From Halobacteriovoraceae bacterium (GTDB lineage Bacteria > Bdellovibrionota > Bacteriovoracia > Bacteriovoracales > Bacteriovoracaceae), in NCBI GenBank assembly GCA_963719505.1, contig CAVRCF010000001.1, positions 1,088,001 through 1,152,000 of the forward strand: a stretch of 64,000 nt of DNA, given 5' to 3'. The position numbers and the translations under genes were made by a program. Shown here piece after piece: positions 1 through 33,321 of this stretch. A model generated the notes under the pieces. The model had not been told where the DNA came from. It saw nothing but the letters and a program-made list of their open reading frames with translations, and did no database searches. Each line of letters starts with the position of its first letter. The stretch's first letter is position 1.

Positions 1-485
1 AAACTTAAACTAATCGAATTATTGGTATAAACACTTGGTATCCATAAAGAGACTCTATGATTATTGAATGAACGTCCATATTGTCTTTGGCCTTGGCCAC
101 CACCATTGAATTTAAAGTTTATATTTTCATTGAGATTATCTTGATAAGTTAGTCCATATGAGAGAACCATATTTCTTGGAAGTCTATATCCAAGTTTAAA
201 TGATTGAAAAACTTGGGTTGATCCAGTTGCGTCGAGTCTTTCACCGTTATCTGTTGTACCACCATCGAATCTATTATAGGTAGCGCCATCCTGATACTTA
301 TTGGAAAGACTTCGTCCGACATACTGAACGAAGTAATTAAATGAAAAGTTCGATGCGACTTTTTTAAGAGTAGAAAAACTCTCATCTTTTTCCACTGTTG
401 AGTTAAGCAGAGAGATATTAACGTTTGCCGAGAGACTTAGTGAAAATAATACGGCAAAGAGAAATGTCATTTTTAAATTAAACAT
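1..485 (-). CDS. Exported, probable outer-membrane beta-barrel protein (3' end runs off the window; not in ORF track)
   Basis: ATG at 485 with GGAGG RBS at 490-494; frame open to the edge: MFNLKMTFLFAVLFSLSLSANVNIS...NFSFNYFVQYVG...FQSFKLGYRL...LSYGLTYQ; signal peptide and alternating aromatic strands. Confidence 0.75.
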   Translation of the reverse strand, partial: MFNLKMTFLFAVLFSLSLSANVNISLLNSTVEKDESFSTLKKVASNFSFNYFVQYVGRSLSNKYQDGATYNRFDGGTTDNGERLDATGSTQVFQSFKLGYRLPRNMVLSYGLTYQDNLNENINFKFNGGGQGQRQYGRSFNNHRVSLWIPSVYTNNSISLS

Positions 486-493
486 TTAGCCTC

Positions 494-2596
494 CTATATC
501 TGTTTCGTTGCTCTATCGTTTGTTCCCGCGACTTGAATCGTACTATTGAAAAGCTTATCTCTTTCAGACAAATAGTTTTTGGCATTATTGATAAGTCTTT
601 CTCTAAGTACTGCTTCTTCATCGTTTTTCATATTCTTTTGAAATTCTTTTTTAATACTAACGTACTCAATTGTTAACATATGCATCATCGCTTCAAGAAG
701 TTCATCGGTTTCACTGTTCGATGTTATAGCAGATGTCCCTTTATTATCTAAGTTAAATTTATAGGTCATGCTGTTTATATCTTCTCTTTTGGCAGAGTAG
801 ATAGACTGAAGGGTCCAAAGAGCATTTTTTATTGACCAGTTATACGTTTGCAGTGCAAAAGATGAAGCCTCTTGCTTTTTATTTTGTTGAAGAAAGAGAA
901 CTTCCCAGTGGTCTTTCATATAGCCACGAAAGCTATCTGTGTCAAAAAGATCATTAGAGGCAAAAAGTTTTGAATTACTTTTTAAGTTTTTCATCACACT
1001 TGCACGGCGCACTTTTGACTGACGGTAAAACTTTGCCAGCGCTTTAACTTTGTCGTGAGTTAGAGGAGTCTGAGAGAGATTTTTCTTCGACAGTTCAGTT
1101 GTAAGATCATCCATAAAAACGAATGCTCTACCAACATAGTAGTCTCTCTCTTTTTGTTCGTTTTGCTCATCTACAGACATATAAGGATGATCCAAGAAAA
1201 ACTGGGCCATTTTCTTCCAAATATAAACCTGCACTTCCTGTGTTCTCGTCACTTCTTTTTGAAGGAATGTTCTATATCTAATATCAAGATTCTTAAAGAA
1301 TTCTAAGTCCGATTTAACTTTACGAAGATATCTTTTCGTCTCTGCATAGGCGCTCTCTGCTGTTAAAGGAAAGTTAAACTGAGTTTCCATCTGTTCTAGG
1401 CGACCCATTCTTGCAGCAAAAACAAGATCGGACTCGTAGGCAATTTGCATCGCTTTGAAGTTTGTCATTCTTTGATCCCAAGAAATTTTCTCTAGGGGAA
1501 CAATCGAAGTAGACTTAGCCGAACTTACAGCTGATTGACCAGTTGATACTTGATCTTGAACTTTTTGCGTCTCGACAACTTCAGCTAATTTTTCCGTATT
1601 CTCATACGTAATTTCAGGTGTCGTCACACTTTCGACAGAATTAACAACTGAAAGGTAAGCATTTCGTACCTTTCCCACGGCCCACATTGCATGAGGGTTC
1701 ATCGGTTGGGTAATAAAATAAAATGTGAAAGGCCCGTATATAGCTAGGGCAACAGAGTATCCAAGATTTTCTTTAACTGTGCTAATAAACCAGAAAAACT
1801 TACCTAAGGTCCACTTATAGGTTAGCCCTTTAAGATTACTAAAAGGTCTCGCTTTAATTCTCGCTAGCTTGATAACGACATCTTTAGAGAGAATAGGAAG
1901 TGAATACTTTAGAGAGCTTAACTTATGAACTCTCTTTTTCGTCTCAATAATTTTCGATCTTACTTCCTTGAGAGAAGCGTAAATATTTTGGCGCTCAGTC
2001 CACGTTAAAACGGGGTCGGCTTCAATTCTATAGATTTCATTTTCTATGTTGACGACAGCATCATCCTTATTTCCTTTATCGATGGAAAGAGTCAGGTCAG
2101 GATCTTTGTAATATTTGTTTAAAAGTCCCTCAATAAGAACGATTCTTGCCGTCATGGAATTACCAGTTTTAGCTTTGTCGTACTCATTATTGATAATATT
2201 GTAGAGGTGATTGATAAAAGGGCTCAAAGGCTCCATATTGATAGAACTGTAATTAACCAGACCACAGTCTAGAGTTTTCGCTGAATAACTAAAGTTACCG
2301 TCAACGTCATAATAGTCATAGATTTCGTTGATCTCACCTTCAAGGTAGACGCGTTTATAGATAACATAGTTTCCAGATGTTAGTGAACCGATTTGTAATT
2401 GACCAATAAGAGTATCATCTACCCAATAATTGTGGCCCGAAAAACCGTTCGAATTATGAATGTCGAAAATCTGTAGATCACATAAATCCAGATCTCGTCC
2501 ACCTTTGATGGTTAATAGGTCGGCTAAGCGCTCATCCAGAGTCTTAGCCGACTTAATCACGAGGTCGGATATGTGAATATACGTTTGAGCACGCAT
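494..2596 (-). CDS. Hypothetical 700-aa protein with one central TM segment and a helical C-terminal region
   Basis: Long ORF with AAGGAA RBS; hydrophobic stretch LGYSVALAIYGPFTFYFIT; stop codon abuts the RBS of the next gene. Confidence 0.8.
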   Translation of the reverse strand: MRAQTYIHISDLVIKSAKTLDERLADLLTIKGGRDLDLCDLQIFDIHNSNGFSGHNYWVDDTLIGQLQIGSLTSGNYVIYKRVYLEGEINEIYDYYDVDGNFSYSAKTLDCGLVNYSSINMEPLSPFINHLYNIINNEYDKAKTGNSMTARIVLIEGLLNKYYKDPDLTLSIDKGNKDDAVVNIENEIYRIEADPVLTWTERQNIYASLKEVRSKIIETKKRVHKLSSLKYSLPILSKDVVIKLARIKARPFSNLKGLTYKWTLGKFFWFISTVKENLGYSVALAIYGPFTFYFITQPMNPHAMWAVGKVRNAYLSVVNSVESVTTPEITYENTEKLAEVVETQKVQDQVSTGQSAVSSAKSTSIVPLEKISWDQRMTNFKAMQIAYESDLVFAARMGRLEQMETQFNFPLTAESAYAETKRYLRKVKSDLEFFKNLDIRYRTFLQKEVTRTQEVQVYIWKKMAQFFLDHPYMSVDEQNEQKERDYYVGRAFVFMDDLTTELSKKNLSQTPLTHDKVKALAKFYRQSKVRRASVMKNLKSNSKLFASNDLFDTDSFRGYMKDHWEVLFLQQNKKQEASSFALQTYNWSIKNALWTLQSIYSAKREDINSMTYKFNLDNKGTSAITSNSETDELLEAMMHMLTIEYVSIKKEFQKNMKNDEEAVLRERLINNAKNYLSERDKLFNSTIQVAGTNDRATKQI

Positions 2597-2638
2597 AGTC
2601 TCATTTCCTTTTATTTATTACGGCTTTCGCCGAATTAG

Positions 2639-5600
2639 TTACTGTTGTGTTTGGTTATAACTTCCACCAACGTTGATTGTTGCAACAGTCGGTTTTAGTT
2701 TTAAATTTTCAAAGTCTCTTTCTGCTCTATGAAAACTAACACCATGATACTGATGAGTTGCTATGATTCTTAAAGCTTCCCAGTCAGCTGTTGCCGAGCG
2801 AACAGCTTTCATCACAAGTCCTCTGTATTCATTGATTTGCGATTTATTGGCTGCTGGCATTGCACTCATCACTGCGTCTAGATTTATCTCCAAGCCCAGT
2901 TCAGTTGCAAAAGTGATATTTTTTGCATTTTCCAAAGCCGGAATAACTTCCTGAAGAGCTTTAACTCTCGTTGCAGCAGCATTTGGCATCATGTAGCCAA
3001 AGAGAGATCCGTATTTATTTAGTTTTTTCTCCCAAGTGAGATCACCGCGCTTAAGAGACATTCTTAACTCTCTTATGACCATCGACTCTGGTGATTGACC
3101 AAGCTTATCAGCATAGCCGTAAAGAGGTTTTCTTTCCGCTTTCATATCGAAGTTTGAGTCAGCATCAAGAGTTCTTTTATTTGCTCCTAAAAAGTTTCCA
3201 TAATAGTTAAGAAACTTAGCCGCTGAGAGTCCACCATCTTTAAGGGCACGCTTTTCAGCGAGCATACTGTGCTTAATTTGCTGATAGTGCACAAGCTCAT
3301 GACCAGCTGTATAGATCATGGTGAACGGATCGAGCTCTGATCTTAGCCAAACATAAATATCACTGTTTGAATAAAGACCATGAGATGTTTTCTTTTTAGC
3401 AAAGCATTCACCAGCATGTTCTCTATGACAAAGCTTGTGGTTTCTTAGAGACTTAGAGTCTAAGATTGAGATTCTGTCTGGCTTCAATTCATTTGTGAAA
3501 ACATCAGAAACTGATATCTTTCTCTCTTTCGCAAAATTTTCAATATTAAATTTTGCGTATGGAGCGATATCCAAAAGTTCAATTAAATTCTCTTTTGATG
3601 TATAGCTCGAGTTTAAAAGATCTTGATATCTTGCAATCTTTGGATGCTTTTTAAAGTGTTCAGCTCTTTTCTTCGCCAGGTAGACCATCTTGTCTTTCTT
3701 TCCAAGAAGTCTTGCGTTTTGCTCTACTGAGATCCAGTCTTTTCTTGCAGCTTTCAACTCATCAGAGATATAGTCAGAATCTGTGAGAAGAGTTCCAGAG
3801 CGCATTTCACTTTGAGTGGCAATGGCGATCTTCTTATCGGTATCTCTTGAACCAAGGTAGAGAGTCTCATACTCTAGTTCATTAAAGTCTGTCTCTTTTC
3901 TAAAAACGTTTGCAAACTCAGCCGTCTTTGGAGACTTGCTTAGTCTTTGAATAGACCCCTCACATAATTGCTCAAGAAGGTCTGTAACCACTTTCTTAGA
4001 ACGATTTGATAAAATCGATTCAGGGAATTCTAACTTGGCAGACTTATCAATTGAACGAACGAGTTTGTTGAGTTCATTTCGAACATTTTTATCAGAAATA
4101 TTTAATTTTTTAATTTCAGCTTTAAGCTCCATGACCATGACGATGTCTAGCGCTCTTTGCTCTTCACTATAATAGGTTGAAGAAACGTCAGTGTTGAGAA
4201 TACTAATATTATCAATGATATCTCTCACGTTAACTTTAGACAGTCTAAGCTCATGTTTTTGAAGAAGGCTAACGATATCAGCCTGATATTTATTGATTTG
4301 AACGTAGTATTTCGCAACAGCCTTTTTATCAATTTTTGCTTCAAGAAGGTCGATGATTTTATAAACACTTTCAATAACTCTTGGGTTCAAATAAGATAAA
4401 ACTTCTTTAAGCTGAATTTTCATCCCAATAGAAAGCCCTAAAAGTTGATAAGCTGAAGTCGTCTCTTTCTCTAATAGAGTTGTCGCTTGTCTTAGCATTC
4501 TTCCAATTTGAACAAGAGAAGCTGCTACAAACACTGGTAGTTCATGTTTCATTTGTTTTGGAACTTTGGGCTTTGCCAATTCTCTTGGCGTCACAGAGTC
4601 TTTATTGTTTGTGTCGTCCACGATAACAAATGGAGCATAACCACCACCTGCTGATGTGTTGACGATTGAACTCATTGCTCCTCTTTCTTGGGGAGCATAT
4701 CTAACAAGTGCATTGTGAGAGATTCTTGGCTTCGCATTTTTTCCACCACCAAAGAAAACCCACATTCTTATATCTGCTGCTAAGTTTGCGAATCGGTATC
4801 CGTCTTTTCTTTCAACAGCGACTGGAATTCTACCAATCTTAACAAGTTGTTGGTAAGCATATTGACTTGGGTTCTTTTTAATCTCGGCCAGAATCTCTTT
4901 TTTTACCGTCTTTGAAAGAGTTTTTAAAATATAGATTCCTTGTCCACCTGCAGAGTCTGGTGCTTTGACAACCCACTCGTCAGGGTTGTTTGCAATAATC
5001 TCAGCTGACTTTCTCGTAGGAGGTAAAGTTTGTGGAGGAAGAATTTTTACACCTTTAGGATTCAGACCCGCACTTTCTATATCGTTTGCGAAAAACTTTG
5101 GAGCGTAGTGAGTTAGAGTTGCAAGGATAATTTTGTTATCCATAATTCTATTCAGACCACCCATATAAAGTCTTCTATTTAAAACAGCATCAATAGCACC
5201 TGGTACAGTATACGCAGACTGAAGTGGAACTGGTTTTCCATTTTCATCTTTTACGATTGAAGCTCTTCCATTTTTACCAATTTTTAAAGCATCTCTTAAA
5301 TAAATATTTTCACCCGAGTCTGGGTCTCTTAAGATAAGACCTTTTTCTGGATTAAAGAGGGCTGAGTCAGCGTTTACTCTTGAGTAGATAGCCGTGACGA
5401 TAGGATTGTTTTCACCAATAGTTCTTAGGCGAATATAACCGTCTTTATCTTGGTATAGTTGGTCGGGATCTGTATATAGAAGTCCTGAGTAAGCCGCGAG
5501 CTGATGAATCTCAGGTGCAGCACCATTTTGTCCTCCCGGTGGAAGAATAATTTGGACACCGTCAGTGATTCCAGTCCAAGATTCACCAAGAGATTTGTAG

Positions 5601-6370
5601 GTCTCTCCTAAAATCTTAAAGTGATCGTTTGGCATTACTTTTCCAAGAGAGTCTAAGATCTCTGGATTTTGCTTGTAAATTCCCTCAAGCATATTCATAT
5701 TGTTTGAAGCTCCTGAAGGGGAGCCAGCATTTATTTCTAGAATTCTAAACGGAAGTCCAGGAAGTTCATTGTCTTTATTCTTTGCGATGAGTTTTGGAAC
5801 GTCTGCAGTTTGCTGAAGATAATCTTCCACTAAGACTAAATCTAATCCCACGTTGTCCAAGAACGGATAGTCTTTCATATTTTTGTGATGAAGCTGTGGA
5901 TAATAAGACGATGAATCCTTGATGGACTCGATAAAGATCTTACGAACGGCTTCAGGAAGTGATTGAACGAAGGCCGAGCTCTCAAGAGACTCAGACCCAT
6001 AAATATCTTGTAATACTGATCTTAAAGAAATCATAAGTCTTTGAGCGGCTTCTTCAACATCGTTAAAAAGTGATTTTTGAACGGGAACAACAGTGGTTGT
6101 ACAAGGTACAACGAAGGTTTTATATCCTTTTGCGGTTTTTTTAGAGAAGGTTAAGTCTCTGTTTTTTAGAAACTTAGTGAGCTTTTTACTTTCTTGAAAA
6201 TGAGTGCTCACCTCATGATCTAAAATTCTTTTGGCCACTGGCTTGGCGTGTAGGTAGGCTGAGCGCAGCTTTTTAGCACTAAAAAGATAATTTGAGACTA
6301 CGACCTCGGCATTCCCAATGAAGCCTAAGTTTGGATTGTACTCTTTTCGACTTTTTTTCGTCTGTTTCAC
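2639..6370 (-). CDS. Circularly permuted ATP-grasp type 2 ligase fused to a degenerate alpha-E domain and a C-terminal HExxH metallopeptidase-like domain
   Basis: Motifs LQDIYG, GLDLV, ILEINAGSPSG, AIYSRV, VVKAPDSAGGQG, DIRMWV, IVNTSAGGG; then VAASLVQIGRMLRQA (alpha-E-like); then AGHELVH. Confidence 0.85.
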   Translation of the reverse strand: MKQTKKSRKEYNPNLGFIGNAEVVVSNYLFSAKKLRSAYLHAKPVAKRILDHEVSTHFQESKKLTKFLKNRDLTFSKKTAKGYKTFVVPCTTTVVPVQKSLFNDVEEAAQRLMISLRSVLQDIYGSESLESSAFVQSLPEAVRKIFIESIKDSSSYYPQLHHKNMKDYPFLDNVGLDLVLVEDYLQQTADVPKLIAKNKDNELPGLPFRILEINAGSPSGASNNMNMLEGIYKQNPEILDSLGKVMPNDHFKILGETYKSLGESWTGITDGVQIILPPGGQNGAAPEIHQLAAYSGLLYTDPDQLYQDKDGYIRLRTIGENNPIVTAIYSRVNADSALFNPEKGLILRDPDSGENIYLRDALKIGKNGRASIVKDENGKPVPLQSAYTVPGAIDAVLNRRLYMGGLNRIMDNKIILATLTHYAPKFFANDIESAGLNPKGVKILPPQTLPPTRKSAEIIANNPDEWVVKAPDSAGGQGIYILKTLSKTVKKEILAEIKKNPSQYAYQQLVKIGRIPVAVERKDGYRFANLAADIRMWVFFGGGKNAKPRISHNALVRYAPQERGAMSSIVNTSAGGGYAPFVIVDDTNNKDSVTPRELAKPKVPKQMKHELPVFVAASLVQIGRMLRQATTLLEKETTSAYQLLGLSIGMKIQLKEVLSYLNPRVIESVYKIIDLLEAKIDKKAVAKYYVQINKYQADIVSLLQKHELRLSKVNVRDIIDNISILNTDVSSTYYSEEQRALDIVMVMELKAEIKKLNISDKNVRNELNKLVRSIDKSAKLEFPESILSNRSKKVVTDLLEQLCEGSIQRLSKSPKTAEFANVFRKETDFNELEYETLYLGSRDTDKKIAIATQSEMRSGTLLTDSDYISDELKAARKDWISVEQNARLLGKKDKMVYLAKKRAEHFKKHPKIARYQDLLNSSYTSKENLIELLDIAPYAKFNIENFAKERKISVSDVFTNELKPDRISILDSKSLRNHKLCHREHAGECFAKKKTSHGLYSNSDIYVWLRSELDPFTMIYTAGHELVHYQQIKHSMLAEKRALKDGGLSAAKFLNYYGNFLGANKRTLDADSNFDMKAERKPLYGYADKLGQSPESMVIRELRMSLKRGDLTWEKKLNKYGSLFGYMMPNAAATRVKALQEVIPALENAKNITFATELGLEINLDAVMSAMPAANKSQINEYRGLVMKAVRSATADWEALRIIATHQYHGVSFHRAERDFENLKLKPTVATINVGGSYNQTQQ

Positions 6371-6601
6371 GTTTTCACCTCGGATTAATTAAGTCTTTGT
6401 TGAATCCTTCTACAAAATCTGACTATAATAGTATGATAACTATACACCTTGATGCTATGCGTTGCAAACACTTTTTACGCAATTCGGTAAAAACTGTCCA
6501 GATTAAGTTAATCTTTAAATTTATTGAATTTTCCTGTATTATTTACATACGTTAAATCCACATCCAAGTGGTTGTTATTATGTAGTTGAAATGGAGTTGC
6601 T

Positions 6602-7270
6602 ATGGTTGAAGTTAAATCAGTGTATGTTATTGGGAATGAGCAGCAAAATAGGGAGTCTATTGTAGATTCTTTATCGAAAGCGGGCTATCAAGTGCGAGGG
6701 TTTGAAAGCTCTCAAGATTATTACAAGAATAAGGATGATAACTTTCATGGGTTATACATCATCGACTGGAGTCTTCCAGACGAACCTGGAATAGAGATTG
6801 TCTCTAACATCAGAAAAAAAGACGGAATTTCACCAATTTTTATGCTTTCTAAGTTTACGGAAAATCAGGATGTTCTAGAGGGTCTAACTCGTGGAGCTGA
6901 CGATTACATAAAGAAACCGTATTTTCTTGATGAAATAATTCAAAAGGCAAAAAATAGTTTGAAAAGACTCTCTTTGATTAATGCAGGTGAGGAATCAGAT
7001 GGAAAAATTCGACTTCTGCCTGAAGCAAGCTCATTTTTGAAGAATAATTTTACCATCTCTTTAACTAAACGAGAGTATATTATTTTTAGTTATCTTTACG
7101 AAAAGTTAGAAAAGCCTGTGTCTCGAGAGGAACTAATATCTCAATTTTCTGAAGAGAAAATGACTGACAGAAATATTGACGTGCATATCTTTTCTCTTAG
7201 GAAGAAGATAAAGCCAGCAAGTATTTTAGTTGAGACTGTTTGGGGCATGGGCTACAAGCTCAAAATCTAG
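6602..7270 (+). CDS. OmpR-family response regulator (orphan)
   Basis: IIDWSLP receiver, GADDYIKKP, winged helix RNIDVHIFSLRKK..TVWGMGY. Confidence 0.92.
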   Translation: MVEVKSVYVIGNEQQNRESIVDSLSKAGYQVRGFESSQDYYKNKDDNFHGLYIIDWSLPDEPGIEIVSNIRKKDGISPIFMLSKFTENQDVLEGLTRGADDYIKKPYFLDEIIQKAKNSLKRLSLINAGEESDGKIRLLPEASSFLKNNFTISLTKREYIIFSYLYEKLEKPVSREELISQFSEEKMTDRNIDVHIFSLRKKIKPASILVETVWGMGYKLKI

Positions 7271-8529
7271 AAATACATTCTAAATTCAACCTCATATCTA
7301 TCTACTTTGGCCGTGTTAGTTCCCTCTAGCATGGTCTGGTAAATAAATTTTACTGCCGCAGGTAGAACGAACTTCTTTTGCTGGTAAAGGCCTACCGTTG
7401 TGAATTCACTCGTAAGTCTTACATTATGGGTCTCTGAACCAGTGCTTGCTGCTAGGTAGTTCTCTGAGTAAGAGTAGTCTGTATTTCTCGCTGTGTACTG
7501 TGCTTCATCAATTGACTCATACTCGTAAGCTGCATTAAAGAGAATCCAGTCGTTAACATAGTAATCTGTTGAGAGATGAAAAAGACTCTTATTTCCCAGC
7601 TTCTCTTTGTAGCTTTGCTTCTCATCTCCAAAGTTTACATCAGCGCTGTAAGGAACACGGAGACTCTTATCTGTAGCAAACTGATAAGTATAGCGATAGA
7701 AAGAATTGAAAACAAATTTACTTGATAGGTGGTAGCTTCCTCCAAACTCAGTAAAGATGTCCCATTGTCCGTCACCAAAATTGATATCTTGAATAATATC
7801 TGGATCGTCTGTTCTCCCCGTAGGAGCAACTGTTCCACCACTTAAAAGTAAGCCGTATTTATTTGTCGTTAGAAAGTTGTACATAATTCCAAGCTCAACA
7901 TCTCCAAGCCCTTCACCTTGCCAGTCACCAACTTCATCGTAGCCAAGCCCGTTGACAACTAAGCTTTGAAGAAATCCACTATCGACATCTAATTTATCTG
8001 AGTATTGATCTACAAATGTTCCGATGGCTTGGGCAAAATCGTCATTGGTATTGTCTTGAAGATTATTCGCTATAGTGTCGTAACTATTAGACTTGGTTCT
8101 TTTGTAGTTCATTTTTACATTGGCTTTATAGATCGGCATAATCATATAGGCTGTCACTTTATTAGTAACACCGTAAGCAAATCCATACCCATCAACTTCA
8201 ACATCAGCTTTAGCGTCGATTTTGTACTCACCAAGATTTAGGTTCTCGTATGCCTTTGGGTAGGGCTTCAGAAGGGCGAGAGCGGTCTGAATTGTCTCAT
8301 TTTCGATGGACTCAAGAAAATCTACATTGGCTTCAATTTGATAGGATAATGGGGATTCGTTACTCGTTTTATTATAAGTTGAATCGACTTGGGATTTTAC
8401 ATTTCTGTAAACTCCAAGCCTTACACCCTTAGGTAAAGTCTTGTAATACTGAGCGAATGCCATGTTTGATAAAAATAGGGCTCCTAAAAAAATTAATGAT
8501 TTTTTGTTTTTCACTTTCCATCTCTCCAA
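7267..8529 (-). CDS. Outer-membrane beta-barrel protein (true start probably GTG at 8514)
   Basis: Signal peptide ..AFA; GLGDVELG and PTG motifs seen in MetA/phenol-degradation-type barrels; C-terminal YF. Confidence 0.7.
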   Translation of the reverse strand: MERWKVKNKKSLIFLGALFLSNMAFAQYYKTLPKGVRLGVYRNVKSQVDSTYNKTSNESPLSYQIEANVDFLESIENETIQTALALLKPYPKAYENLNLGEYKIDAKADVEVDGYGFAYGVTNKVTAYMIMPIYKANVKMNYKRTKSNSYDTIANNLQDNTNDDFAQAIGTFVDQYSDKLDVDSGFLQSLVVNGLGYDEVGDWQGEGLGDVELGIMYNFLTTNKYGLLLSGGTVAPTGRTDDPDIIQDINFGDGQWDIFTEFGGSYHLSSKFVFNSFYRYTYQFATDKSLRVPYSADVNFGDEKQSYKEKLGNKSLFHLSTDYYVNDWILFNAAYEYESIDEAQYTARNTDYSYSENYLAASTGSETHNVRLTSEFTTVGLYQQKKFVLPAAVKFIYQTMLEGTNTAKVDRYEVEFRMYF

Positions 8530-8711
8530 ATGTTTAATGTATTAACATTGTAGGGGCGAAAGAGAGTTTATTCACGGAAAAAATAACGCGTCGTGTAAAA
8601 CTAACATGCTGTCAATATTGTGGACAGTCAATGTAACTATGACACGCTGCAGCGTTATTCGTTTTGATTTTTCTCTAGATCCCCTATGATGGTGGTTCAA
8701 CCGGAGGGACA

Positions 8712-9875
8712 TTGAAATATTTATTATCCACACTTTTAATTTTATCTTTCTTAGTATCTTGCAAAGAAGACAGTAATATTAAGCCTTTAGCGAGTGCTCA
8801 AAAGCTCTCAGAACGATTTGACTCCAAATCCACGGGAAGTAAAATTGTGACTTTACCTATAAAGATTCCAATGACTCAAAATACTTTATCTAGGTACACT
8901 GCAGATGATATTCTTAATCCCGTTGATAATACTGAAATAGGAGACCTTCCCGAGTCTCAAGTTGGTTTTCTTAAAAGATTAAAAACAGCTTTTAAGTTAA
9001 AGCTCTATAATCTAGGTTTAAGGCTAGGGGTTCAAAACCGTTACCGTTTTTCAACCAACTACGATGGGTTCCCTGAAATTGATACAGACTATATCAAGTC
9101 AGTAAAAATAAAAAAATTATTTTTTGCTATCGAGCCCTGTGATCCTAATGATTCAACTTGTAAGGTCGCTGATGAGAATAGCCCTTCAACACTTTTTTTC
9201 TTAGAAAAGTTTTTCTTAAATATTTCGACGATTCAAAACCCTGAGGATTTGGCTTTTCTCGATATACCTCAGCCTGAGAGTTTAAGCTCAGAATCTTTTA
9301 AAGAGTATGTTAACAAAGCCTGGGGAAAACAGCCTACAGACTTTATGGACTATGTCAGCAAAGAGACTGGTGAAGTGAAGAATGAAGTTTTTTATGATTT
9401 GAATGTGGCAAAATTAGATAACAAAGAGAACAGAAAAAGACTAAGAGAGCTCAATCAAAGAAGAAATGTTAGAGACAGTGGAAAAAACTTTATCGCAAGA
9501 ATTGACTCTGAAAGTATTCTGGAGACAAAGAGCTTTTTTAAAAGAAAAGCCTTCAAGTCCTCTGTAAAAGATTTAACATTCTTAGGGAAAAGTCTTTTTA
9601 TCGAACTTCACTCAGAGAAGCAAAGAGATCTCTTTTTCAAAACAATAACGGAACAAGAAGAATCCATAAGAGATATCGGCGTTTATGAAATAGAGGGTTG
9701 TACGCTTTTGACGTGTACTGATGTTAAGGTTAACCCTATCAATCTTGTTCCCATGTTAAAAAAGTCGACAAATATTAAGTTTGATACTTACTTCTCTGTT
9801 AATAATCTTGATCCAAATGACTTTCGCTACAGTGGATATCTTGAAATTGAAGTGAAGTTGGAGTTACCTCTGTAA
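8712..9875 (+). CDS. Hypothetical lipoprotein
   Basis: TTG start after GGAGG; lipobox LVSC. Confidence 0.75.
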   Translation: MKYLLSTLLILSFLVSCKEDSNIKPLASAQKLSERFDSKSTGSKIVTLPIKIPMTQNTLSRYTADDILNPVDNTEIGDLPESQVGFLKRLKTAFKLKLYNLGLRLGVQNRYRFSTNYDGFPEIDTDYIKSVKIKKLFFAIEPCDPNDSTCKVADENSPSTLFFLEKFFLNISTIQNPEDLAFLDIPQPESLSSESFKEYVNKAWGKQPTDFMDYVSKETGEVKNEVFYDLNVAKLDNKENRKRLRELNQRRNVRDSGKNFIARIDSESILETKSFFKRKAFKSSVKDLTFLGKSLFIELHSEKQRDLFFKTITEQEESIRDIGVYEIEGCTLLTCTDVKVNPINLVPMLKKSTNIKFDTYFSVNNLDPNDFRYSGYLEIEVKLELPL

Positions 9876-10265
9876 CTCAACAGGGGTAGCATGGGTTTTA
9901 GCGACTTTCTCTACTGAGGCTTTAAACTCAGCTTTCGGAATGATAATATCGAGAGCACTAATCATGTGATTGAGCGTCAATTTGCACCCTTCCGAACAAA
10001 CAAAATCACATGAAGTCAGCTCAATCGTTCTAATCGTGCTTTGATTTGTGAAAGTCGAATACCAAGAAAAATACTCGTCTAAAACCTTTTCAAAAGCTGT
10101 TATTAACTGAGCAGTGCTATCGGACTGGAGATTGAAGATAAATTGACTCGTCGGCTTAGCTTTTCCATTAAACGAAACTTTAACCACTCCACGATGAGCA
10201 ATTTTTAATGTAGGATTTAAACAGACTGGACAATACATCAGACTATTATGGCAGAAAGATAACAC
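9864..10265 (-). CDS. Hypothetical Cys-motif (possible Zn-binding) protein
   Basis: CPVC and CDFVCSEGC; likely start at MYCPVC. Confidence 0.65.
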   Translation of the reverse strand: MLSFCHNSLMYCPVCLNPTLKIAHRGVVKVSFNGKAKPTSQFIFNLQSDSTAQLITAFEKVLDEYFSWYSTFTNQSTIRTIELTSCDFVCSEGCKLTLNHMISALDIIIPKAEFKASVEKVAKTHATPVELQR

Positions 10266-10281
10266 CTGTAAAGGGGAAGAA

Positions 10282-11136
10282 ATGATTGCTGAAAAAGAAA
10301 AAATTGAAACCTTTGATGGACTAAAGCTAGAGGCGTCAATTGTGGAAAACGGAAGCCCCGTATGGTTGGTTATTACTCATGGCCTGGGGGAGCATTCTGA
10401 TCGCCACTCGTATATGGATCGAAACTTCTTACAATATTTTAATATTTGCCGCTACGATCTTCGGGGTCATGGCAATAGTGATGGGAAAAGGGTGAGTGTT
10501 GACTCTTTTACAGATTACACAAAAGACCTCGATGTCGTTTTAAATTATTTAAAAACTAAATTTCAGATGAAGCGCTATATCCTTTTTGGACATTCGATGG
10601 GGGCTTTGATTACGGCTTCATACATGCAAAAAATAGCGAGCACTCACTTTTATCCAGAGAAAGTTTTCTTAAGCGGACCACCGGTTGCTGCCCCTGGTGC
10701 TTTGGGAAGCTTTTTTCATCTTGCTCCACTGGGAGTCAGTAAAACTTTGAGTAAACTAGGCTTCTCTATCGCTTTAGGAGGAATGTTGGATATAAAGAAG
10801 CTATCTCACGACCCAAGAGTGTACGAAGCTTATATAAGGGATCCAAAAAACTGTTTAAAAATTGAAACAAAACTCTTTTTTAGTATTCTTGCTGAGTCTA
10901 AAGAGGTTTTCTCCAGAAAGCTGAGAGTATCATGTCCTCTTTATGTCGCAGTTGGAACCAAGGACAAACTTATTGACCCAGATCGGGCCATTGATTATTT
11001 TAAACAGACAGAGAAAAATGCGAGTCTTCTAGAAGTTAAAGATGGCTATCACGAACTCCACAATGAAATTGGCAAATTTAAAAAGCCTTATATGAAATTT
11101 TTGAAAGATTCACTTCTAGAATCTATTTATTCATAA
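10282..11136 (+). CDS. Lysophospholipase / alpha-beta hydrolase
   Basis: HGLGEH, DLRGHG, GHSMG nucleophile, catalytic YHE. Confidence 0.92.
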   Translation: MIAEKEKIETFDGLKLEASIVENGSPVWLVITHGLGEHSDRHSYMDRNFLQYFNICRYDLRGHGNSDGKRVSVDSFTDYTKDLDVVLNYLKTKFQMKRYILFGHSMGALITASYMQKIASTHFYPEKVFLSGPPVAAPGALGSFFHLAPLGVSKTLSKLGFSIALGGMLDIKKLSHDPRVYEAYIRDPKNCLKIETKLFFSILAESKEVFSRKLRVSCPLYVAVGTKDKLIDPDRAIDYFKQTEKNASLLEVKDGYHELHNEIGKFKKPYMKFLKDSLLESIYS

Positions 11137-12376
11137 GCGTTTTAATGAATTTGACTCTCTCGATAGCAGGCGGATGAGAGTGATAGAATTTTGTATATAT
11201 TGGACTTGGTGTAAGAGTACTTGAATTGTCCTTATACATTTTTAAAAGAGCGCTAATAAGCTTTTGGCCATCAGCGAAATGCGTGGCAAACTGATCGGCC
11301 TCGTACTCATTTTTTCGTGAAAGCCAGCTTCCAATAGGTGTGAAAAAATAGGTCATTAGTGGAACAAGAAAAATAAAAAGTATAATAGTAATATGAGAAG
11401 ACTGTTGCAAGGCAAAGGCATCATAGAGAGAATCTAGTTCAACCGCTAGATATAATAAATAAAAGCCCACACCCGTAAATACTGTACTCATCACCATCGA
11501 CTTCATAATGTGTTTCTTTTTGAGGTGTCCTAGTTCATGGGCCAAGACAGCTATCACTTCTGAGTGCGTAAGACTTTTTAAAAGAGTGTCAAAAAAAACG
11601 ATTCGTTTATTTTTTCCAAAACCAGTAAAATAGGCATTACCGTGAGAACTTCTTAAAGATGCATTCATGACATAGTAGTCTTTAAACTCGAGATCAATAT
11701 CATCACTTAACTTTTCAATCTGATGAGTTAAGTTTTCGTCATCTAATTTTTCAAACTTATTAAAAAGAGGAGAGATAAATTTTGGATAAGCCCATATAAG
11801 AATAAACTGAAAAACAACTAGAGATACCCAACTGATGGCCCACCAAGTTTTTTCGAAATTCTCGATAAAAAGGAGAATACCAAGTAACAGTGGAGTCATT
11901 AAAACAATGGATAAAATAAACTGTTTTATGAGATCAGCAATAAAAATTTTTGGTGTTGTTTTATTAAATCCATATTTTTGCTCAATAACAAAAGTTGAGT
12001 AAATGGACTCTGGAATATTCAAGAAAATAGATATGAGTAAAAAGCCACCAAAAAAATACAAACTTTGATAAAGGGGGTCACTACTTAGAGTTGAGGTCAA
12101 TTCATTGAGCTTTTTTACTCCACCCAACGGAAGCCATGCGAGGAGTAAAGCAAAGTGATAAAAAGTGGTTGCGATACTAAATTTAAGTTTTGTTATGGAA
12201 TATGACGCAGCTTTTTGATGATCTGCAAGGTTAATAAAATCTGAGAACTGGGAAGGAACCAATGACTGATTTTTCTTAATATGTCTGATATTTATCAAGA
12301 TAAGAATTACTTTTATAATTAGGCCAAGGGTGGCAAGATAGTAAAAAATTGAAAGAATAACGTCTGAATTAATCAC
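11123..12376 (-). CDS. M48 (Ste24-like) membrane zinc endopeptidase
   Basis: Multiple TMs, NAYFTG, AHELGH, EYEAD, SHP. Confidence 0.95.
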   Translation of the reverse strand: MINSDVILSIFYYLATLGLIIKVILILINIRHIKKNQSLVPSQFSDFINLADHQKAASYSITKLKFSIATTFYHFALLLAWLPLGGVKKLNELTSTLSSDPLYQSLYFFGGFLLISIFLNIPESIYSTFVIEQKYGFNKTTPKIFIADLIKQFILSIVLMTPLLLGILLFIENFEKTWWAISWVSLVVFQFILIWAYPKFISPLFNKFEKLDDENLTHQIEKLSDDIDLEFKDYYVMNASLRSSHGNAYFTGFGKNKRIVFFDTLLKSLTHSEVIAVLAHELGHLKKKHIMKSMVMSTVFTGVGFYLLYLAVELDSLYDAFALQQSSHITIILFIFLVPLMTYFFTPIGSWLSRKNEYEADQFATHFADGQKLISALLKMYKDNSSTLTPSPIYTKFYHSHPPAIERVKFIKTLMNK

Positions 12377-14728: not shown

Positions 14729-16825
14729 TTGAATCGTAAACTGAAAAATACATTTATTTTACTGGGATTAGCCTTGTCTTTGCAAGGTTACTCACAAGTT
14801 CCCCTAGACTTAGAACTAGAGGACCCAGAGGATATGGAGCTTCTTCTCGAAGAGTTTCCCGAGGAAAAGTCAGTTAATGCCATTGCTGAACCATCTAAAA
14901 CGAGCAATGAAGATCAACTTGAATCCTTGAAAGATGACTTGGGTGATCTCGAGTTTACACTTCCGGAAGAGGATGCAAAAGATATTGCCAATGAATTGAA
15001 CAAAGGCACAAAACCCAAAATTATGGGGGCCAATGATAAGGGAAACCTTTTAATTTTTGATGTTGGTCGCGAAGAAAAAGAACTTTTAGAAGTCGCAAAA
15101 AATATGCAAGGTAAAATACCAGTAAATGAGTGGAAGGAAATTGCCTCTGTTAGCTCAAAGTCTTCTTACACCGTTGTCAGAGGTGATTGGCTTTGGAAAA
15201 TTTCTCAACGTATCTTTGGTTCCGGATTTTACTACTCAAAAATATGGTCACTAAACCCTTATATTACAAATCCTCATGAGATTGAGCCAGGTATGATTCT
15301 GTCTTTTAGCACAGGGTCTGCAAACTCATTGCCTTCCATTTCCGTTTCCCAAAATGGCCAGATTGTTGGTATGAACAAAAATAGACGTGGCACTAGAGAC
15401 AATGAATTTGATAAATGGGGAGACGATGCAAAACCTGATTGGTTGATAGAAAAAGAGAAGCTTAAAGAAGAAAATGTTTTTGTTCAATACTCATCACTTG
15501 AAACTGACGAAGACTTAAAACAAATTAGTAATCAAAGCCTCATCAAAGAATACGAAGCTTATGAGCCACCAAGGCCTGATTTTGAAATAGAAATACCGAC
15601 AGAGCAATACGACGACTCTGGTTTTGATAAGAATGCAAAAGTTAGCTTTAACTTCAAAGAAGGATTTTACTTAAATACCTTCATCTCCACAAATGTTGTT
15701 CAAGACTTTGGTAAAGTAGATTCAGCTATCTCTGAGCAGGGAATTTTTAATAAGTACGATAAAATTTATATTAAGTTTGATGATAGCATTAATGTCGTGG
15801 AAGGCGACAAGTTCTCCATCTATAAATCTGAAGGGCAAGTCTCTCATAGAAACTCTGACAGAACGGGAACTAAATATACAATCGTTGGAAGTATTCAAAC
15901 AATCAATAAACAAGATGATCTTTGGAATTGTGAAATTATTGAGTCTTCTGGACTTGTAGCAAGAAATGATAGAGTTACTGTCTACACACCAAAAATTGAA
16001 AGAATAACTAAAACATTCAACTCAAGACTTATAGAGTCTGTTCTTATCGCTGGTTTTAGAAAAAGAAGTGATGTTGCCTCTTTTGGAGATGTTGTTTATT
16101 TGGATCGTGGTCGTGCTGACGGCGTAGAGATGGGTAATGTTTTTGAAATATACGGATTTAAAGATAGAGGAACTGGAAAAAATATTTCAGATAACCCAAC
16201 CTATAAAAATGGAGAAGCTATTGTCATCAGTCTTACTGATAACTTTGCAACAGCTCTCATCAGTCAAAGTGTAAGAGACTTCCTCATTGGGGATCTTGCC
16301 ATTACAAAGACAAAAGAAGCTGCAGCAAGGGCCCTTAATTTAAAGTCAAGAATAGAGTCTGGGGAAGCTTCGAGGCTTGAGGATCAAGCTCTTGAAAATT
16401 TAGATGTTGAATTAAATATTGATGATCTTAATGACTCGTTACTAGATAAAGCGGATAAGATTCAATTTACGGAAGATGAACTCGCAGAATTAGAGAGACA
16501 AGAACGTGAAAAATCAATTATGACTGAAGGTGAGAAAGATCTTAGATCACTAGAGAGACTTGAAAGTGAAATTGAGACGGCTGAAAAAATGCTAAACGAA
16601 GCAAGACTTGATGAAGACAAGCTTCTTGAGAATCAGAATCTTGATACCATGGAGAAAAGCCTTCTTTATAATCAACAAGAGTCTCTTGATGAAATAGAAG
16701 AAAACTTTGGTAAACGTTATCTTGATGAAGATCTTAACGATAAAGACAATCCTTATGGCCTGACAGAATTTGATATCGAAGAAATTGATGAGCTTCTCAA
16801 CGTCGAAAAAGAATTAGAGGAATAA
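14729..16825 (+). CDS. LysM protein, TsaP-like, with acidic N- and C-terminal extensions
   Basis: YTVVRGDWLWKIS..IWSLNPYITNPHEIEPG; DVVYLDRGRADG; D/E-rich tail. Confidence 0.8.
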   Translation: MNRKLKNTFILLGLALSLQGYSQVPLDLELEDPEDMELLLEEFPEEKSVNAIAEPSKTSNEDQLESLKDDLGDLEFTLPEEDAKDIANELNKGTKPKIMGANDKGNLLIFDVGREEKELLEVAKNMQGKIPVNEWKEIASVSSKSSYTVVRGDWLWKISQRIFGSGFYYSKIWSLNPYITNPHEIEPGMILSFSTGSANSLPSISVSQNGQIVGMNKNRRGTRDNEFDKWGDDAKPDWLIEKEKLKEENVFVQYSSLETDEDLKQISNQSLIKEYEAYEPPRPDFEIEIPTEQYDDSGFDKNAKVSFNFKEGFYLNTFISTNVVQDFGKVDSAISEQGIFNKYDKIYIKFDDSINVVEGDKFSIYKSEGQVSHRNSDRTGTKYTIVGSIQTINKQDDLWNCEIIESSGLVARNDRVTVYTPKIERITKTFNSRLIESVLIAGFRKRSDVASFGDVVYLDRGRADGVEMGNVFEIYGFKDRGTGKNISDNPTYKNGEAIVISLTDNFATALISQSVRDFLIGDLAITKTKEAAARALNLKSRIESGEASRLEDQALENLDVELNIDDLNDSLLDKADKIQFTEDELAELERQEREKSIMTEGEKDLRSLERLESEIETAEKMLNEARLDEDKLLENQNLDTMEKSLLYNQQESLDEIEENFGKRYLDEDLNDKDNPYGLTEFDIEEIDELLNVEKELEE

Positions 16826-16826
16826 G

Positions 16827-17729
16827 ATGCTCGTTTTAATGCTTAAAGGTTTTGCTATGGGCTTAGCCGATATCGTTCCAGGAGTCTCAGGTGGTACGGT
16901 AGCCTTTATTACGGGTATCTATGACAGGCTTATCGCATCTATAAGTTCAGTTAATACAACATTTTTAAAACTCATACTTTCTTTTAAAATAAAAGAAAGT
17001 CTTGAACATATTAACTTCAAATTTTTAGCACCTCTATTATTTGGAATTGGGATTGCCATTATTTCAATGAGTAGGGTTATGCATTTTTTAATGAACAATT
17101 ATGCTGTTCAGACATGGTCCCTCTTTTTTGGTTTAATCATCGCCTCAATCATCTATATTGGTAAACAAATCGATGATATTAAAAGTCCAAAAAATATAAT
17201 GTCCCTCGTCTCAGGTGTCGTCGTTGGGGTAGGGGTTGTCTCTCTCATACCTGTAGAAACTCCTTCTTCACCTCTTTATCTCTTTTTCTCCGGAGCCATC
17301 GCCATTTGTGCTATGATTTTGCCTGGTATTAGTGGGTCATTCCTTCTTCTTATTCTTGGAAAATACGCCTTTATTACAGGCGCTCTAAAGAGTCCCTTTG
17401 TGGGAGATAATCTTTTCAGTATTGGTGTCTTTTCCATCGGTTGTCTCGTTGGCATTTTATCTTTTTCAAAGCTTCTAAATTATCTATTAAAGCATTATCG
17501 AAATACAATGATGGCCTGCTTAACGGGTTTTATGATTGGTTCATTAAAGAAGATATGGCCATGGAAAGAAGTGTTGGAGTCAAAGGTTATAAGAGGTAAA
17601 ACATACGTACTATCTGAGGCGAATATTATACCCCACAAGCTTGATGCAACTGTATTAACTGCACTGGGTCTTATGATTTTTGGCTTTATCTTAGTATTTG
17701 CTATTGAGAGATTATCTCAAAAAGATTAA
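16827..17729 (+). CDS. DUF368 membrane protein (undecaprenyl-phosphate translocase family)
   Basis: MGLADIVPGVSGGT and AMILPGISGS repeats. Confidence 0.92.
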   Translation: MLVLMLKGFAMGLADIVPGVSGGTVAFITGIYDRLIASISSVNTTFLKLILSFKIKESLEHINFKFLAPLLFGIGIAIISMSRVMHFLMNNYAVQTWSLFFGLIIASIIYIGKQIDDIKSPKNIMSLVSGVVVGVGVVSLIPVETPSSPLYLFFSGAIAICAMILPGISGSFLLLILGKYAFITGALKSPFVGDNLFSIGVFSIGCLVGILSFSKLLNYLLKHYRNTMMACLTGFMIGSLKKIWPWKEVLESKVIRGKTYVLSEANIIPHKLDATVLTALGLMIFGFILVFAIERLSQKD

Positions 17730-17889: not shown

Positions 17890-19032
17890 TTAATACCCAG
17901 GTACTGAGGCAATTTTACTATAATCTAGTGTCGTCTCATACAGAGAATCATTGTAAAAGCTTGTTAATCTTAAGTCATGTTTCTCTGCAAGGCTTGTAGC
18001 GATTTTCTCTCCGATTCCTGAATTTGACTTGTACTGACTAGAAAAGGGTGAATTGATCGTAAGCTTATCTTCTAAAATTCTTATAAAAATTTTGTGTGAG
18101 TCATTTTGTGAAGAGGCTAGAGCCTTTACACTGTTTGAAAGAATACTTATTAGGATAGATTCAAAGTCTTGTTGGATGATATTTATCGATTTTTTTCGCG
18201 CTCCTTCTATTTTATATTGATTTGGTGAAATCTTTAACAATTGGATTACTTTCTCTACTGCATCAAAGATCTGTATGCTCTGAAGGTTAGTATTAGCGAT
18301 CAAATTAAAAGAATTGAGGTAAAGATGTATGTCGTTTAAATTTTTTTGAGCCGATTCGACAGATTCTTTAATATCGATATTTCTTCTAAGCCCATCTTCA
18401 ATATTATCGACTATTATAAACTGAGACGATAAGAGTCCTTTTATATTGTGAGCAAAAATATTTAGTTCATTTCCAATAAGTGAGAACCTTTCTCGAAACT
18501 CCATCTCATTTTGGCGAGTTATCGAATGCCCCTTGAATAGATAAAAAAATATTGCAAAAAATTCAACAAAGATGATGATATAATCGCCTATATCTTCTTC
18601 TCTGGCTAAGGGAAAAGCACCTTGAGATTTTTGGAACTGTATGGTCAAAATGGAAATACCACCGAAGAGGATTACAGGAAAGAATATTATAGGTTTCGGT
18701 CTGTAAAAAAGAATAATTCCAAGTGTACAGACGATGAATGCAAAAAAATATAAGGGAGAAAATAATTCTCCAACAACTGAAAAAAGAGTGACTAGTAAGC
18801 AGACTAAAAAATGATGAAGAGAGCTCTTAGGTTTTCTGGTTAAATAAAACATAACAGGTAGAGCAAGTATTATTAGTGTAATCTTTGAGAAAAAAAATAT
18901 AATTTTTAAGTCACTGTGTATTAATCTTTGTTCATATAAAAAGAATATGCTTGTGCAAGATATATACAAAAGCATTGCTATAAAAGCGTCTTTTTGTTCA
19001 TCATTTTTGATATATTTAGGTAATAACCTCAT
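17890..19032 (-). CDS. Multi-TM sensor histidine kinase with an abbreviated HATPase domain
   Basis: About 5-6 TMs, H-box FAHNIKG, N-box ILSNSVKA, SGIG; likely start MRLLPK overlapping the regulator's end. Confidence 0.75.
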   Translation of the reverse strand: MRLLPKYIKNDEQKDAFIAMLLYISCTSIFFLYEQRLIHSDLKIIFFFSKITLIILALPVMFYLTRKPKSSLHHFLVCLLVTLFSVVGELFSPLYFFAFIVCTLGIILFYRPKPIIFFPVILFGGISILTIQFQKSQGAFPLAREEDIGDYIIIFVEFFAIFFYLFKGHSITRQNEMEFRERFSLIGNELNIFAHNIKGLLSSQFIIVDNIEDGLRRNIDIKESVESAQKNLNDIHLYLNSFNLIANTNLQSIQIFDAVEKVIQLLKISPNQYKIEGARKKSINIIQQDFESILISILSNSVKALASSQNDSHKIFIRILEDKLTINSPFSSQYKSNSGIGEKIATSLAEKHDLRLTSFYNDSLYETTLDYSKIASVPGY

Positions 19033-33302: not shown

Positions 33303-33321
33303 GTCAGATGTGGAGATACGA

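Follow-up and report, generated by a model that had tools for sequence, protein, structure and literature searches.

A divergent ATP-grasp fusion protein with an orphan and a barrel-like partner as a candidate envelope-linked module of Bacteriovoracia-type bacteria

The operon that joins a circularly permuted type 2 ATP-grasp gene with genes for an alpha-E protein and a transglutaminase, in part also for Anbu, reportedly goes back to a prediction by Iyer et al. (2009), as cited in PMC6376114, PMC5666114 and PMC3495828. In PMC3495828, the ATP-grasp protein of this canonical operon is predicted to ligate peptide tags that are removed by the transglutaminase-like protein, and PMC6376114 and PMC5666114 describe the operon as a set of ATP-grasp, alpha-E, transglutaminase and Anbu genes with an unconfirmed function. 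Such systems are widespread; ATP turnover has been reported for one canonical ATP-grasp, and no substrate or product is given as shown for any of them in the part of PMC6376114 dealing with them. Here, a related locus is described, which is situated at the beginning of a 64,000-nucleotide stretch from a Halobacteriovoraceae bacterium (assembly GCA_963719505.1, contig CAVRCF010000001.1, positions 1,088,001 to 1,152,000 of the forward strand), called the window in the following. Gene A codes for a fusion protein with an ATP-grasp half and a half carrying an HExxH motif, it is followed by gene B for an orphan protein and by gene C for a barrel-like protein. Collectively, our data support, at present tentatively, the notion that A-B-C form a functional module peculiar to one lineage, that of Bacteriovoracia-type predators, as far as these have been sampled.

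The A-B-C locus and its conservation

The module and its upstream region occupy the first part of the window:

2639..6370, minus strand: gene A, open reading frame (ORF) of 1243 amino acids (aa) with GTG start, fusion protein
494..2596, minus strand: gene B, ORF of 700 aa with ATG start, orphan protein
3..485, minus strand: gene C, first 161 codons of an ORF running off the window edge
6371..6601, divergent: intergenic region between A and a response regulator gene, likely promoter region of A-B-C from sequence reading

The gaps amount to 42 bases between A and B (2597-2638) and to 8 bases between B and C (486-493), and the ORF coordinates confirm the three tightly packed, co-directional genes that had been noticed in an earlier reading of the letters alone (the sequence-only reading). 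Shine-Dalgarno-like sequences precede the starts of A, B and C (GAGGTG, AAAGGAAA and GGAGG, respectively). A consensus scan found no terminator-like sites between the three genes; within positions 1..9000 it returned 3 such sites compared to 5.0 +/- 2.1 in shuffled sequences, and the sole site on the minus strand is located inside gene A (6112-6096). Promoter-like consensus matches, which are no sign of function, occur on both strands of 6371..6601. Database searches retrieved 298 relatives of A at E<=0.001, the best 120 of these 298 being 1161-1290 aa long with 52-100% identity, and 319 relatives of B, the best 120 of these 319 being 688-760 aa long. The ORFs are genuine genes. The base composition of the module shows no break towards its surroundings, no tRNA genes were found within positions 1-12000 of the window and none of the PADLOC defence models matched A, B or C, hence an island or a defence system is not an obvious reading of the locus.

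A profile scan of genome contigs with A confirmed 90 relatives, and 80 loci (L001-L080) were kept; the scan depends on two peptide patterns, and more distant relatives may be missed. The titles of these loci name Bacteriovoracaceae, Halobacteriovoraceae, Bacteriovoracales or Bacteriovoracia, Bacteriovorax, Peredibacter, Bdellovibrionales or Bdellovibrionota, Oligoflexia and unplaced 'Proteobacteria'. There is one complete genome among them, that of the cultured Peredibacter sp. HCB2-198 (L025). The module has also been found on two contigs of metagenome-assembled genomes with Bacteroidota labels, L009 (Nonlabens) and L013 (Flavobacteriaceae); both share the Halobacteriovoraceae gene order, which is full in L013, and they are probably mis-binned.

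Gene B adjoins A in all 63 loci with room for it (tblastn), while the other 17 loci end inside A or less than 400 bases after it. It is located downstream and co-directional in 59 of these 63 (55 whole ORFs, 4 cut by contig ends), and in the remaining four (L070, L071, L074 and L080) the B-C pair is flipped with B upstream and divergent. Gene C comes after B in 53 of the 55 loci with room, 50 times detected by ORF clustering and three times (L022, L063, L064) by a six-frame profile search. According to longest-ORF calls across the loci, the A-B gaps measure 2-45 bases with one of 243, and B and C overlap by 4 bases in 28 of 50 loci. A FastTree phylogeny of 67 A proteins (midpoint root, no support values) comprises five sets with quite different flanks. 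Since the flanks differ between these five groups while A and B persist together, shared descent alone is insufficient to explain the linkage. The gene-neighbourhood survey of relatives, which the sequence-only reading had proposed as a check of its three-gene module, hence found the synteny kept, and the linkage survives the rearrangement in four loci.

The three proteins and a proposed mechanism

Protein A can be divided into the following parts:

6038-6370, minus strand: A residues 1-111, family-specific N-terminal extension with the motif YNPNxGFIG
4613..6037, minus strand: A residues ~112-586, divergent circularly permuted type 2 ATP-grasp domain (Pfam, hhalign)
3521..4534, minus strand: A residues ~613-950, all-helical region, with nothing but helices in the AlphaFold2 (AF2) model
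2642..3472, minus strand: A residues ~967-1243, HExxH (zincin-like) region
3287-3301, minus strand: HExxH motif H1024-E1025-x-x-H1028 of A
2642..2662, minus strand: C-terminal tail SYNQTQQ of A (DNA reading)

Neither a signal peptide nor a hydrophobic span was found in A (Kyte-Doolittle maximum 1.04), and the protein is predicted to be cytoplasmic. The claim of a type 2 circularly permuted ATP-grasp within a ligase fusion was borne out by Pfam and hhalign. CP_ATPgrasp_2 (PF14403) matches the whole protein with 60.4 bits and residues 1-589 with 64.5 bits (cut-off 32), and CP_ATPgrasp_1 reaches 32.8 bits (cut-off 23.1); the canonical ATP-grasp from an Agrobacterium plasmid (locus L081) scores 548.6 bits with CP_ATPgrasp_2, which makes A a far outlier. 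When a 12-member A profile was aligned by hhalign with this canonical protein, a probability of 96.5% was obtained (E 1e-9, 372 columns), and A residues 112-586 were placed onto residues 88-471 of the 471-aa protein, i.e. near the whole catalytic domain. The only PDB sequence relative of A in a profile search is 3n6x_A, which matches in two blocks with an E value of 4.4e-4.

Among 67 full-length A proteins (the window copy and those of 66 loci, with identities down to about 42%), the residues E212, N214, K469, G475, G476, D533, R535, N571 and G575-577 are unchanged in every sequence, and the motifs FRILEINAGSPSG, WVVKAP..GGQG, DIR and SSIVNTSAGGG are common to A, 3n6x and the Agrobacterium protein. 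All motif classes that were checked in A are kept (ExN, VVK, the Gly-rich loop, DxR and N..GGG), and these positions have nucleotide- and metal-binding roles in ATP-grasp enzymes in general. Judged from profiles and motifs, the N-terminal half of A represents a circularly permuted type 2 ATP-grasp that is complete, has its motifs intact and shows the fold of ATP-dependent carboxylate-amine ligases; its ATP-grasp identity is already present in the database names of A relatives. The preceding N-terminal extension carries the pattern Y[ND]PxxG[FY]IG in 61 of the 67 full-length proteins. Besides these, 43 shorter relatives of the N-terminal half were found, nearly all of them on contigs below 3 kb or in the frameshift-rich L055 contig; a true split form of A was not seen among them, the shorter matches looking like contig-end or frameshift pieces. 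In locus L055, A, B and many of their neighbours are broken into several ORFs, which looks like a frameshift-rich assembly and not like real pseudogenes.

The C-terminal half of A was modelled by AF2 with an alignment of residues 590-1243 from 41 genomes (A4) and appears as one compact module, with a predicted local distance difference test score (pLDDT) of 88.7 and a predicted template modelling score (pTM) of 0.89. Helices at ~613-950 are followed by three strands, a long helix with HExxH and more helices, and the strand-strand-strand-helix order around the motif of the model is consistent with a zincin. Without exception, the 67 A proteins carry H1024, E1025, H1028, E1039, E1141, E1147 and H1206. 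The family DUF6782, named 'putative metallopeptidase', reaches 17.1-19.6 bits (below its cut-off of 27), and DUF7801 is the only Pfam match to the helical region 613-950, a weak one with 21 bits at a cut-off of 33.2. A PDB sequence-profile search with the C-terminal half returned no peptidase and nothing relevant. HMMER found 66 proteins at E<=0.001 when A4 was compared exhaustively with 1.84 billion representative proteins, which are either whole family members (1016-1299 aa) or pieces, as judged by length and matched range; three of the shorter matches were read, and each contains the family HExxH stretch and a tail ending in at least 2 Gln. At the level of these sequence searches, the module is without detectable relatives outside this fusion and the fusion is constant.

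The helical region ~613-950 occupies the place where alpha-E is fused in other proteins, and alpha-E was the label given to it in the sequence-only reading, a label that the sequence comparisons do not support. Pfam Alpha-E (PF04168) has no match in A, B or C at E<=1, none in pieces of A at E<=10 and none among 26 B relatives, while a true alpha-E protein scores 316 bits. In hhalign, the C-terminal half of A aligned to a seven-member alpha-E alignment (A5, the alpha-E of the canonical L081 pair and six plasmid alpha-E genes) with a probability of 0.08%, compared to the 96.5% that the same method gave for the ATP-grasp part, and the whole A profile against one alpha-E with 0.06%. The helical C-domain of B, which is about the size of alpha-E, gave 0.31% and, against the seven-member alignment, 0.04%. 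Alpha-E identity of the middle part of A or of the B C-domain was rejected at sequence level by both methods.

All 67 full-length A proteins end in ...[GS]YN[QS]x[QE]Q with 2-8 terminal Gln, the number of which is 2 in 22 sequences, 3 in 3, 4 in 9, 5 in 6, 6 in 24 and 8 in 3. The Gln-tail codons are mixed CAA and CAG. Mostly 2 Gln are present in the clade of the window and mostly 4-8 in the clade labelled Bacteriovorax/Peredibacter, and no clean relation exists between Gln-tail length and glutaminase or transglutaminase neighbours.

Protein B consists of two domains that are connected by a segment and a linker:

1802-2596, minus strand: B residues 1-265, N-domain (AF2, alignment)
1664-1792, minus strand: B residues 269-311, weakly hydrophobic segment, best-conserved part (alignment)
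1487-1654, minus strand: B residues 315-370, variable linker (alignment)
527-1480, minus strand: B residues 373-690, helical C-domain (AF2, alignment)

The AF2 model of B has a pTM of 0.48 and a pLDDT of 79.5 overall, which rises above about 90 in the two domains and falls below 50 in the segment and the linker. Helices and a six-stranded sheet form the confident N-domain (1-265), the stretch 273-311 and the linker are of low confidence, and the helical C-domain is confident at about 400-690. The linker varies between 26 and 108 residues among the relatives and has a high content of Ser, Ala and Thr, and the stretch 269-311 has the consensus WF..TVK.NLGYSVALAIYGPFTFYFITQPMNPHAMWAVGKVR. Its hydrophobic core (279-297) shows a 19-residue Kyte-Doolittle maximum of 1.28 at residue 278 in the window copy. 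No Pfam family was found in 26 of 26 B relatives beyond scattered chance rows, NCBIfam gave nothing meaningful, and B has no match at E<=10 among PDB sequences, no usable match in the ESM Atlas and no Foldseek match of its model in the PDB at E<=0.001. A predicted single-pass protein with the N-terminus inside and the C-terminus outside is the most economical reading of this layout. Co-folding of the C-terminal half of A (654 aa) with B residues 1-270 gave a score of 0.01 compared to a mark of 0.32, which speaks neither for nor against binding.

The part of gene C inside the window covers its first 161 codons, and full-length relatives have a median length of 328 aa. The N-terminus is hydrophobic and signal-like, and relatives show AxA-type signal ends (alignment A3). 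A terminal Phe is present in 38 of 48 full-length relatives, the C-terminus of the window copy lying beyond the edge. The orthologue of C in L001, which shares 47% identity with the window piece by alignment and 53% by tblastn, has an Atlas model (pLDDT 0.60) that matches outer-membrane barrels with template modelling scores (TM) of 0.56-0.59; its Atlas feature scores to clusters of outer-membrane proteins (OMP) are 0.95-0.97, and the matched Atlas groups are Major OMP, OmpG and Phenol_MetA_deg. The Pfam family Phenol_MetA_deg was weakly matched in 3 of 25 C members, none of which reaches the Pfam cut-off, and no meaningful relative of C was found among PDB sequences. Hence, C looks like an exported protein resembling an outer-membrane barrel, and the exported, barrel-like third protein of the sequence-only reading is supported by the signal-like N-terminus, the terminal Phe and the Atlas barrel matches.

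From these features we infer a mechanism in which A might act as a self-contained writer and eraser of an amide modification that works together with the B-C envelope pair, a proposal to which we give something less than an even chance. The ATP-grasp half would link a residue or a short peptide to a carboxylate through an amide bond, and removal of the added group would fall to the HExxH half, in place of the canonical transglutaminase-like peptidase. As likeliest target or dock, the cytoplasmic N-domain of B or the own ...YNQTQQ(n) tail of A can be envisaged. B would pass through or into the inner membrane by its conserved segment, its helical C-domain on the variable linker would reach towards the barrel C, and the state of the cytoplasmic ligase could thereby be coupled to the structure of the envelope. 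The ligase and peptidase activities, the target, the topology of B and the contacts between A and B and between B and C are all deduced rather than observed.

Several points weigh against this proposal. PMC6376114 gives substrate, product and activity as not established even for the canonical family. The HExxH module of A reaches no curated peptidase family in Pfam, and Foldseek found 0 matches of the A C-half model in the PDB at E<=0.001 (best E 0.2), the helical zincins 1y79, 3hq2 and 2oc2 appearing only at E 0.7-0.8 with TM values of 0.09-0.17. The term peptidase, here a putative one, is taken solely from the motif, its conservation and the strand-helix order of the model; of the peptidase that the sequence-only reading had proposed, the invariant HExxH (67/67) stood, but neither a curated family nor a solved fold could be matched. 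The same is true for its single-pass protein B, for which one hydrophobic segment was recovered, but a weak one (1.28 in the window copy): the core 279-297 has a mean hydropathy of 0.98 over 26 relatives, which is weak for a membrane span, and the bias of K+R residues is small, with 3.0 before and 2.1 after the segment and more before it in 18 of 26 relatives. B could be a soluble or peripherally bound protein. C is missing beside B in two loci, namely in L073, where a different exported protein of 289 aa is found, and in L078, where DoxX and other genes follow. Moreover, much of the synteny lies within clades and is partly due to shared descent. Finally, the glutaminase and transglutaminase genes that neighbour the module in other clades encode secreted proteins whereas A is without export signal, and they are absent in 20 of 20 loci of the window's clade.

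Neighbouring genes and rival explanations

The DNA past the window edge was judged from relatives only, the closest locus being 78% identical. In the window's clade, apbE comes next in all 12 loci that reach beyond C, most of which also have nqrM and a convergent nqrF-A operon; the canonical partners, which the sequence-only reading had considered might lie just past the edge, are not found there in these relatives. Its observation that no transglutaminase or Anbu gene is visible holds across the 64-kb window, and an alpha-E gene was not detected either. Pfam applied to 52 further ORFs of the window (E<=1e-5) identified no transglutaminase core, no proteasome/Anbu and no Alpha-E, the six ORFs nearest to the module gave no transglutaminase and no proteasome-family match in Pfam, and a tblastn search of the window, in which TGase_elicitor, Gln_deamidase_2 and YkuD_2 were each represented by at most six sequences, returned nothing. 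In the related loci, the Anbu check consisted of Pfam applied to some ORFs only. Transglutaminase-type genes (Gln_deamidase_2, TGase_elicitor) and YkuD_2 genes occur in 0 of 20 loci of the window's clade.

In the other clades, genes for secreted TGase_elicitor and/or Gln_deamidase_2 proteins have been found in 35 of 60 loci, all with signal peptides, and a YkuD_2 L,D-transpeptidase gene recurs near the module in sister clades. In 8 loci, a Gln_deamidase_2 gene directly adjoins A, B or C; in L070 (578-4559), L071 and L074 (5864-9720) a secreted Gln_deamidase_2, B and C form one tight co-directional string that is divergent from A. Because 35 of 60 sister-clade loci carry such genes, transglutaminase-type chemistry is not wholly absent from the neighbourhood of the family. 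By their sequence features, however, the Gln_deamidase_2 and TGase_elicitor proteins are secreted, facultative neighbours and not of the canonical cytoplasmic type.

On the other side of A, a regulatory gene is located:

6602..7270, plus strand: OmpR-type response regulator (Pfam Response_reg and Trans_reg_C), divergent from A

Within the window's clade, 14 loci have a regulator of 43-51% identity in the same place, in addition to a fragment in L055. Of the 59 loci with room, 43 have an OmpR-type regulator gene no more than 2.5 kb upstream of A, and a pair of response regulator and histidine kinase genes is situated upstream of and co-directional with A in the Bacteriovorax/Peredibacter-labelled clade. 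The window regulator is 25-34% identical to the response regulator of this other clade and 32% to a paralogue in the window; cross-clade orthology of the regulators is not supported, the identity being no better than to the paralogue. It is possible, as far as gene placement can tell, that the OmpR-type protein regulates A-B-C.

The window contains six OmpR-type genes in total (6602-7270, 19016-19654, 21550-22146, 22300-24209, 37006-39076 and 55260-57175), three of which have an adjacent histidine kinase, and the regulator beside A is without kinase. Two proteins without Pfam match, an exported one of 420 aa (7267-8529, minus strand) and a lipoprotein-like one of 387 aa (8712-9875, plus strand), are conserved in position next to the regulator within the window's clade. 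Further envelope genes of the window are located at 14729-17729, 33268-34650, 40882-41487, 44460-46511, 57162-59685 and 61732-62409; they include a LysM protein beside a VCA0040-like undecaprenyl-phosphate translocase, a FecR-domain protein, LpoB, an Amidase_2 protein of 683 aa, a secretin with T2SSE ATPase and a SPOR protein. At 24683-30416 and 41495-44463, series of ORFs with lengths of 300-550 aa have no Pfam family at E<=1e-5.

Several other explanations of the module have to be considered. It is possible, if unlikely, that A makes and hydrolyses a small amide metabolite, such as a di- or oligopeptide or a polyamine conjugate, for which B and C provide the envelope route, which corresponds to the synthesis-and-export idea of the sequence-only reading. 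The presence of ligase and hydrolase-like halves in one A chain, the deposition of the only solved relative 3n6x as 'putative glutathionylspermidine synthase', the resemblance of C to small-molecule channels of the MetA-pathway or OmpG kind and the tight gene packing would agree with such a pathway, but B, having at most one weak hydrophobic segment and no transporter family match, is unlike a known inner-membrane exporter, the module has no conserved ABC, MFS or RND neighbour, and the invariant tail of A stays unexplained. A trans-envelope sensor in the style of FecA/FecR, in which a bitopic B and the barrel C would receive an envelope or prey cue and the cytoplasmic N-domain of B would switch A on or off, appears rather doubtful. 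B lacks homology to any anti-sigma or sensor family and C, with about 300 aa only, shows no features of a TonB-dependent receptor, even though the layout of B (a cytoplasm-sized N-domain that is followed by a conserved hydrophobic segment and, after a variable linker, by the C-domain) and the tight coupling of B and C would suit a sensor. The two-component regulators nearby in both large clades point in the same direction, yet cross-clade orthology of these regulators is not supported and OmpR-type genes are very common in the window.

The tail of A leads to another idea. Tail-directed systems are known from RimK and its substrate, the ribosomal protein S6, from the tubulin-modifying TTL/TTLL enzymes with their carboxypeptidases and from Pup, and a fixed tail on a ligase-plus-peptidase protein recalls them by analogy. 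The tail might serve as substrate, as pseudo-substrate or as docking peptide. It seems improbable, although it would be of interest, that the tail is the handle of the system in the sense of a Pup-like reaction in cis, in which the ATP-grasp half activates or extends the tail and couples it to an amine on B or an envelope protein, and the HExxH half trims or releases it. If true, a bacterial tail code or a Pup-like conjugation by one protein of 1243 aa would be tied to an inner- and outer-membrane pair, and it would be confined to predatory Bacteriovoracia, some clades of which add secreted enzymes acting on Gln side chains. Little credence is given to the idea that A edits peptidoglycan stems or lipoprotein precursors by ligating or removing an amino acid, much as VanA/VanX do under VanRS, and that its product is then processed in the periplasm by the L,D-transpeptidase, glutaminase and transglutaminase encoded nearby. 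In van clusters, a zinc hydrolase and an OmpR-type system accompany an ATP-grasp ligase, and in the Bacteriovorax/Peredibacter-labelled clade the module is flanked by signal-peptide-bearing YkuD_2, Gln_deamidase_2 and TGase_elicitor proteins and preceded by the regulator-kinase pair; these neighbours are, however, absent from the window and all 20 loci of its clade, A is unlike Ddl/VanA-type ligases beyond the fold, and the roles of B and C would be left unexplained. That A, B and C are neighbours by shared descent only and have unrelated functions is very improbable. Most loci indeed belong to two clades in which the gene order is broadly conserved to either side of the module, but the flanks differ completely between the five groups and A and B are nevertheless together, the B-C pair moved to the other side and strand of A in four loci and is still adjacent, A (298) and B (319) belong to families of almost the same size, and the genes are separated by gaps of few bases, with overlapping starts and stops of B and C.

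Comparison with known systems

The writer-eraser reading of A gives the family a value for the study of circularly permuted ATP-grasp systems, for which it might represent a simpler test object with ligase and presumed eraser in one chain and with two constant partners, one of them at the outer membrane. Should B or the tail of A itself turn out to be the target of the ligase, this would amount to a new way of tagging proteins at the bacterial envelope. The module is, as far as sampled, confined to Bacteriovorax-like predators and could therefore bear on predation or on the self-protection of the predator envelope. Moreover, B and the C-terminal half of A offer folds without a solved or curated relative. 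Searches by title and term found no paper on the A fusion or its partners; Iyer et al. (2009) may mention such fusions.

The bifunctional glutathionylspermidine synthetase/amidase carries an N-terminal cysteine amidase. Like A it has an ATP-grasp-type synthetase and a hydrolase for the same kind of bond in one chain, whereas the hydrolase-like part of A is the C-terminal HExxH module, the similarity to A is limited to the ATP-grasp fold, and the enzyme is without envelope partners. With RimK/S6 and TTL/TTLL, which are ATP-grasp writers paired with metallopeptidase or TGL erasers, A shares by analogy an ATP-grasp ligase, a putative peptidase and an invariant C-terminal tail, which is here on A itself; the tail is Gln-rich and not Glu-rich. 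For the canonical ATP-grasp, a comparison with TTL is also made in PMC3495828. The barrels of the MetA-pathway (Phenol_MetA_deg), OmpG and DUF2490 kind resemble C with regard to a predicted signal peptide, a mature length near 300 residues, the Phe at the end of 38 of 48 relatives and TM values of 0.56-0.59, but no C member reaches the Pfam cut-off and there is no PDB sequence relative.

The canonical operon is among the closest known systems. It contains the same ATP-grasp family as A, as indicated by Pfam, the hhalign probability of 96.5% and the kept motifs, and the logic of a predicted ligase with a reversing peptidase, as given in PMC3495828, would be the same. The differences are considerable, since A scores 60 bits where a canonical member reaches 549, A-B-C are without detected alpha-E and the window is without a transglutaminase-core or Anbu gene. 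The presumed eraser of A is the HExxH module fused in cis, the partners are the orphan B and the outer-membrane barrel-like C, and the transglutaminase-type neighbours in sister clades are the secreted Gln_deamidase_2 and TGase_elicitor. Collectively, what appears to be new here from the sequence comparisons is a known ligase family in a new architecture, in which an HExxH module in cis and an invariant Gln tail are combined with an orphan and a barrel partner.

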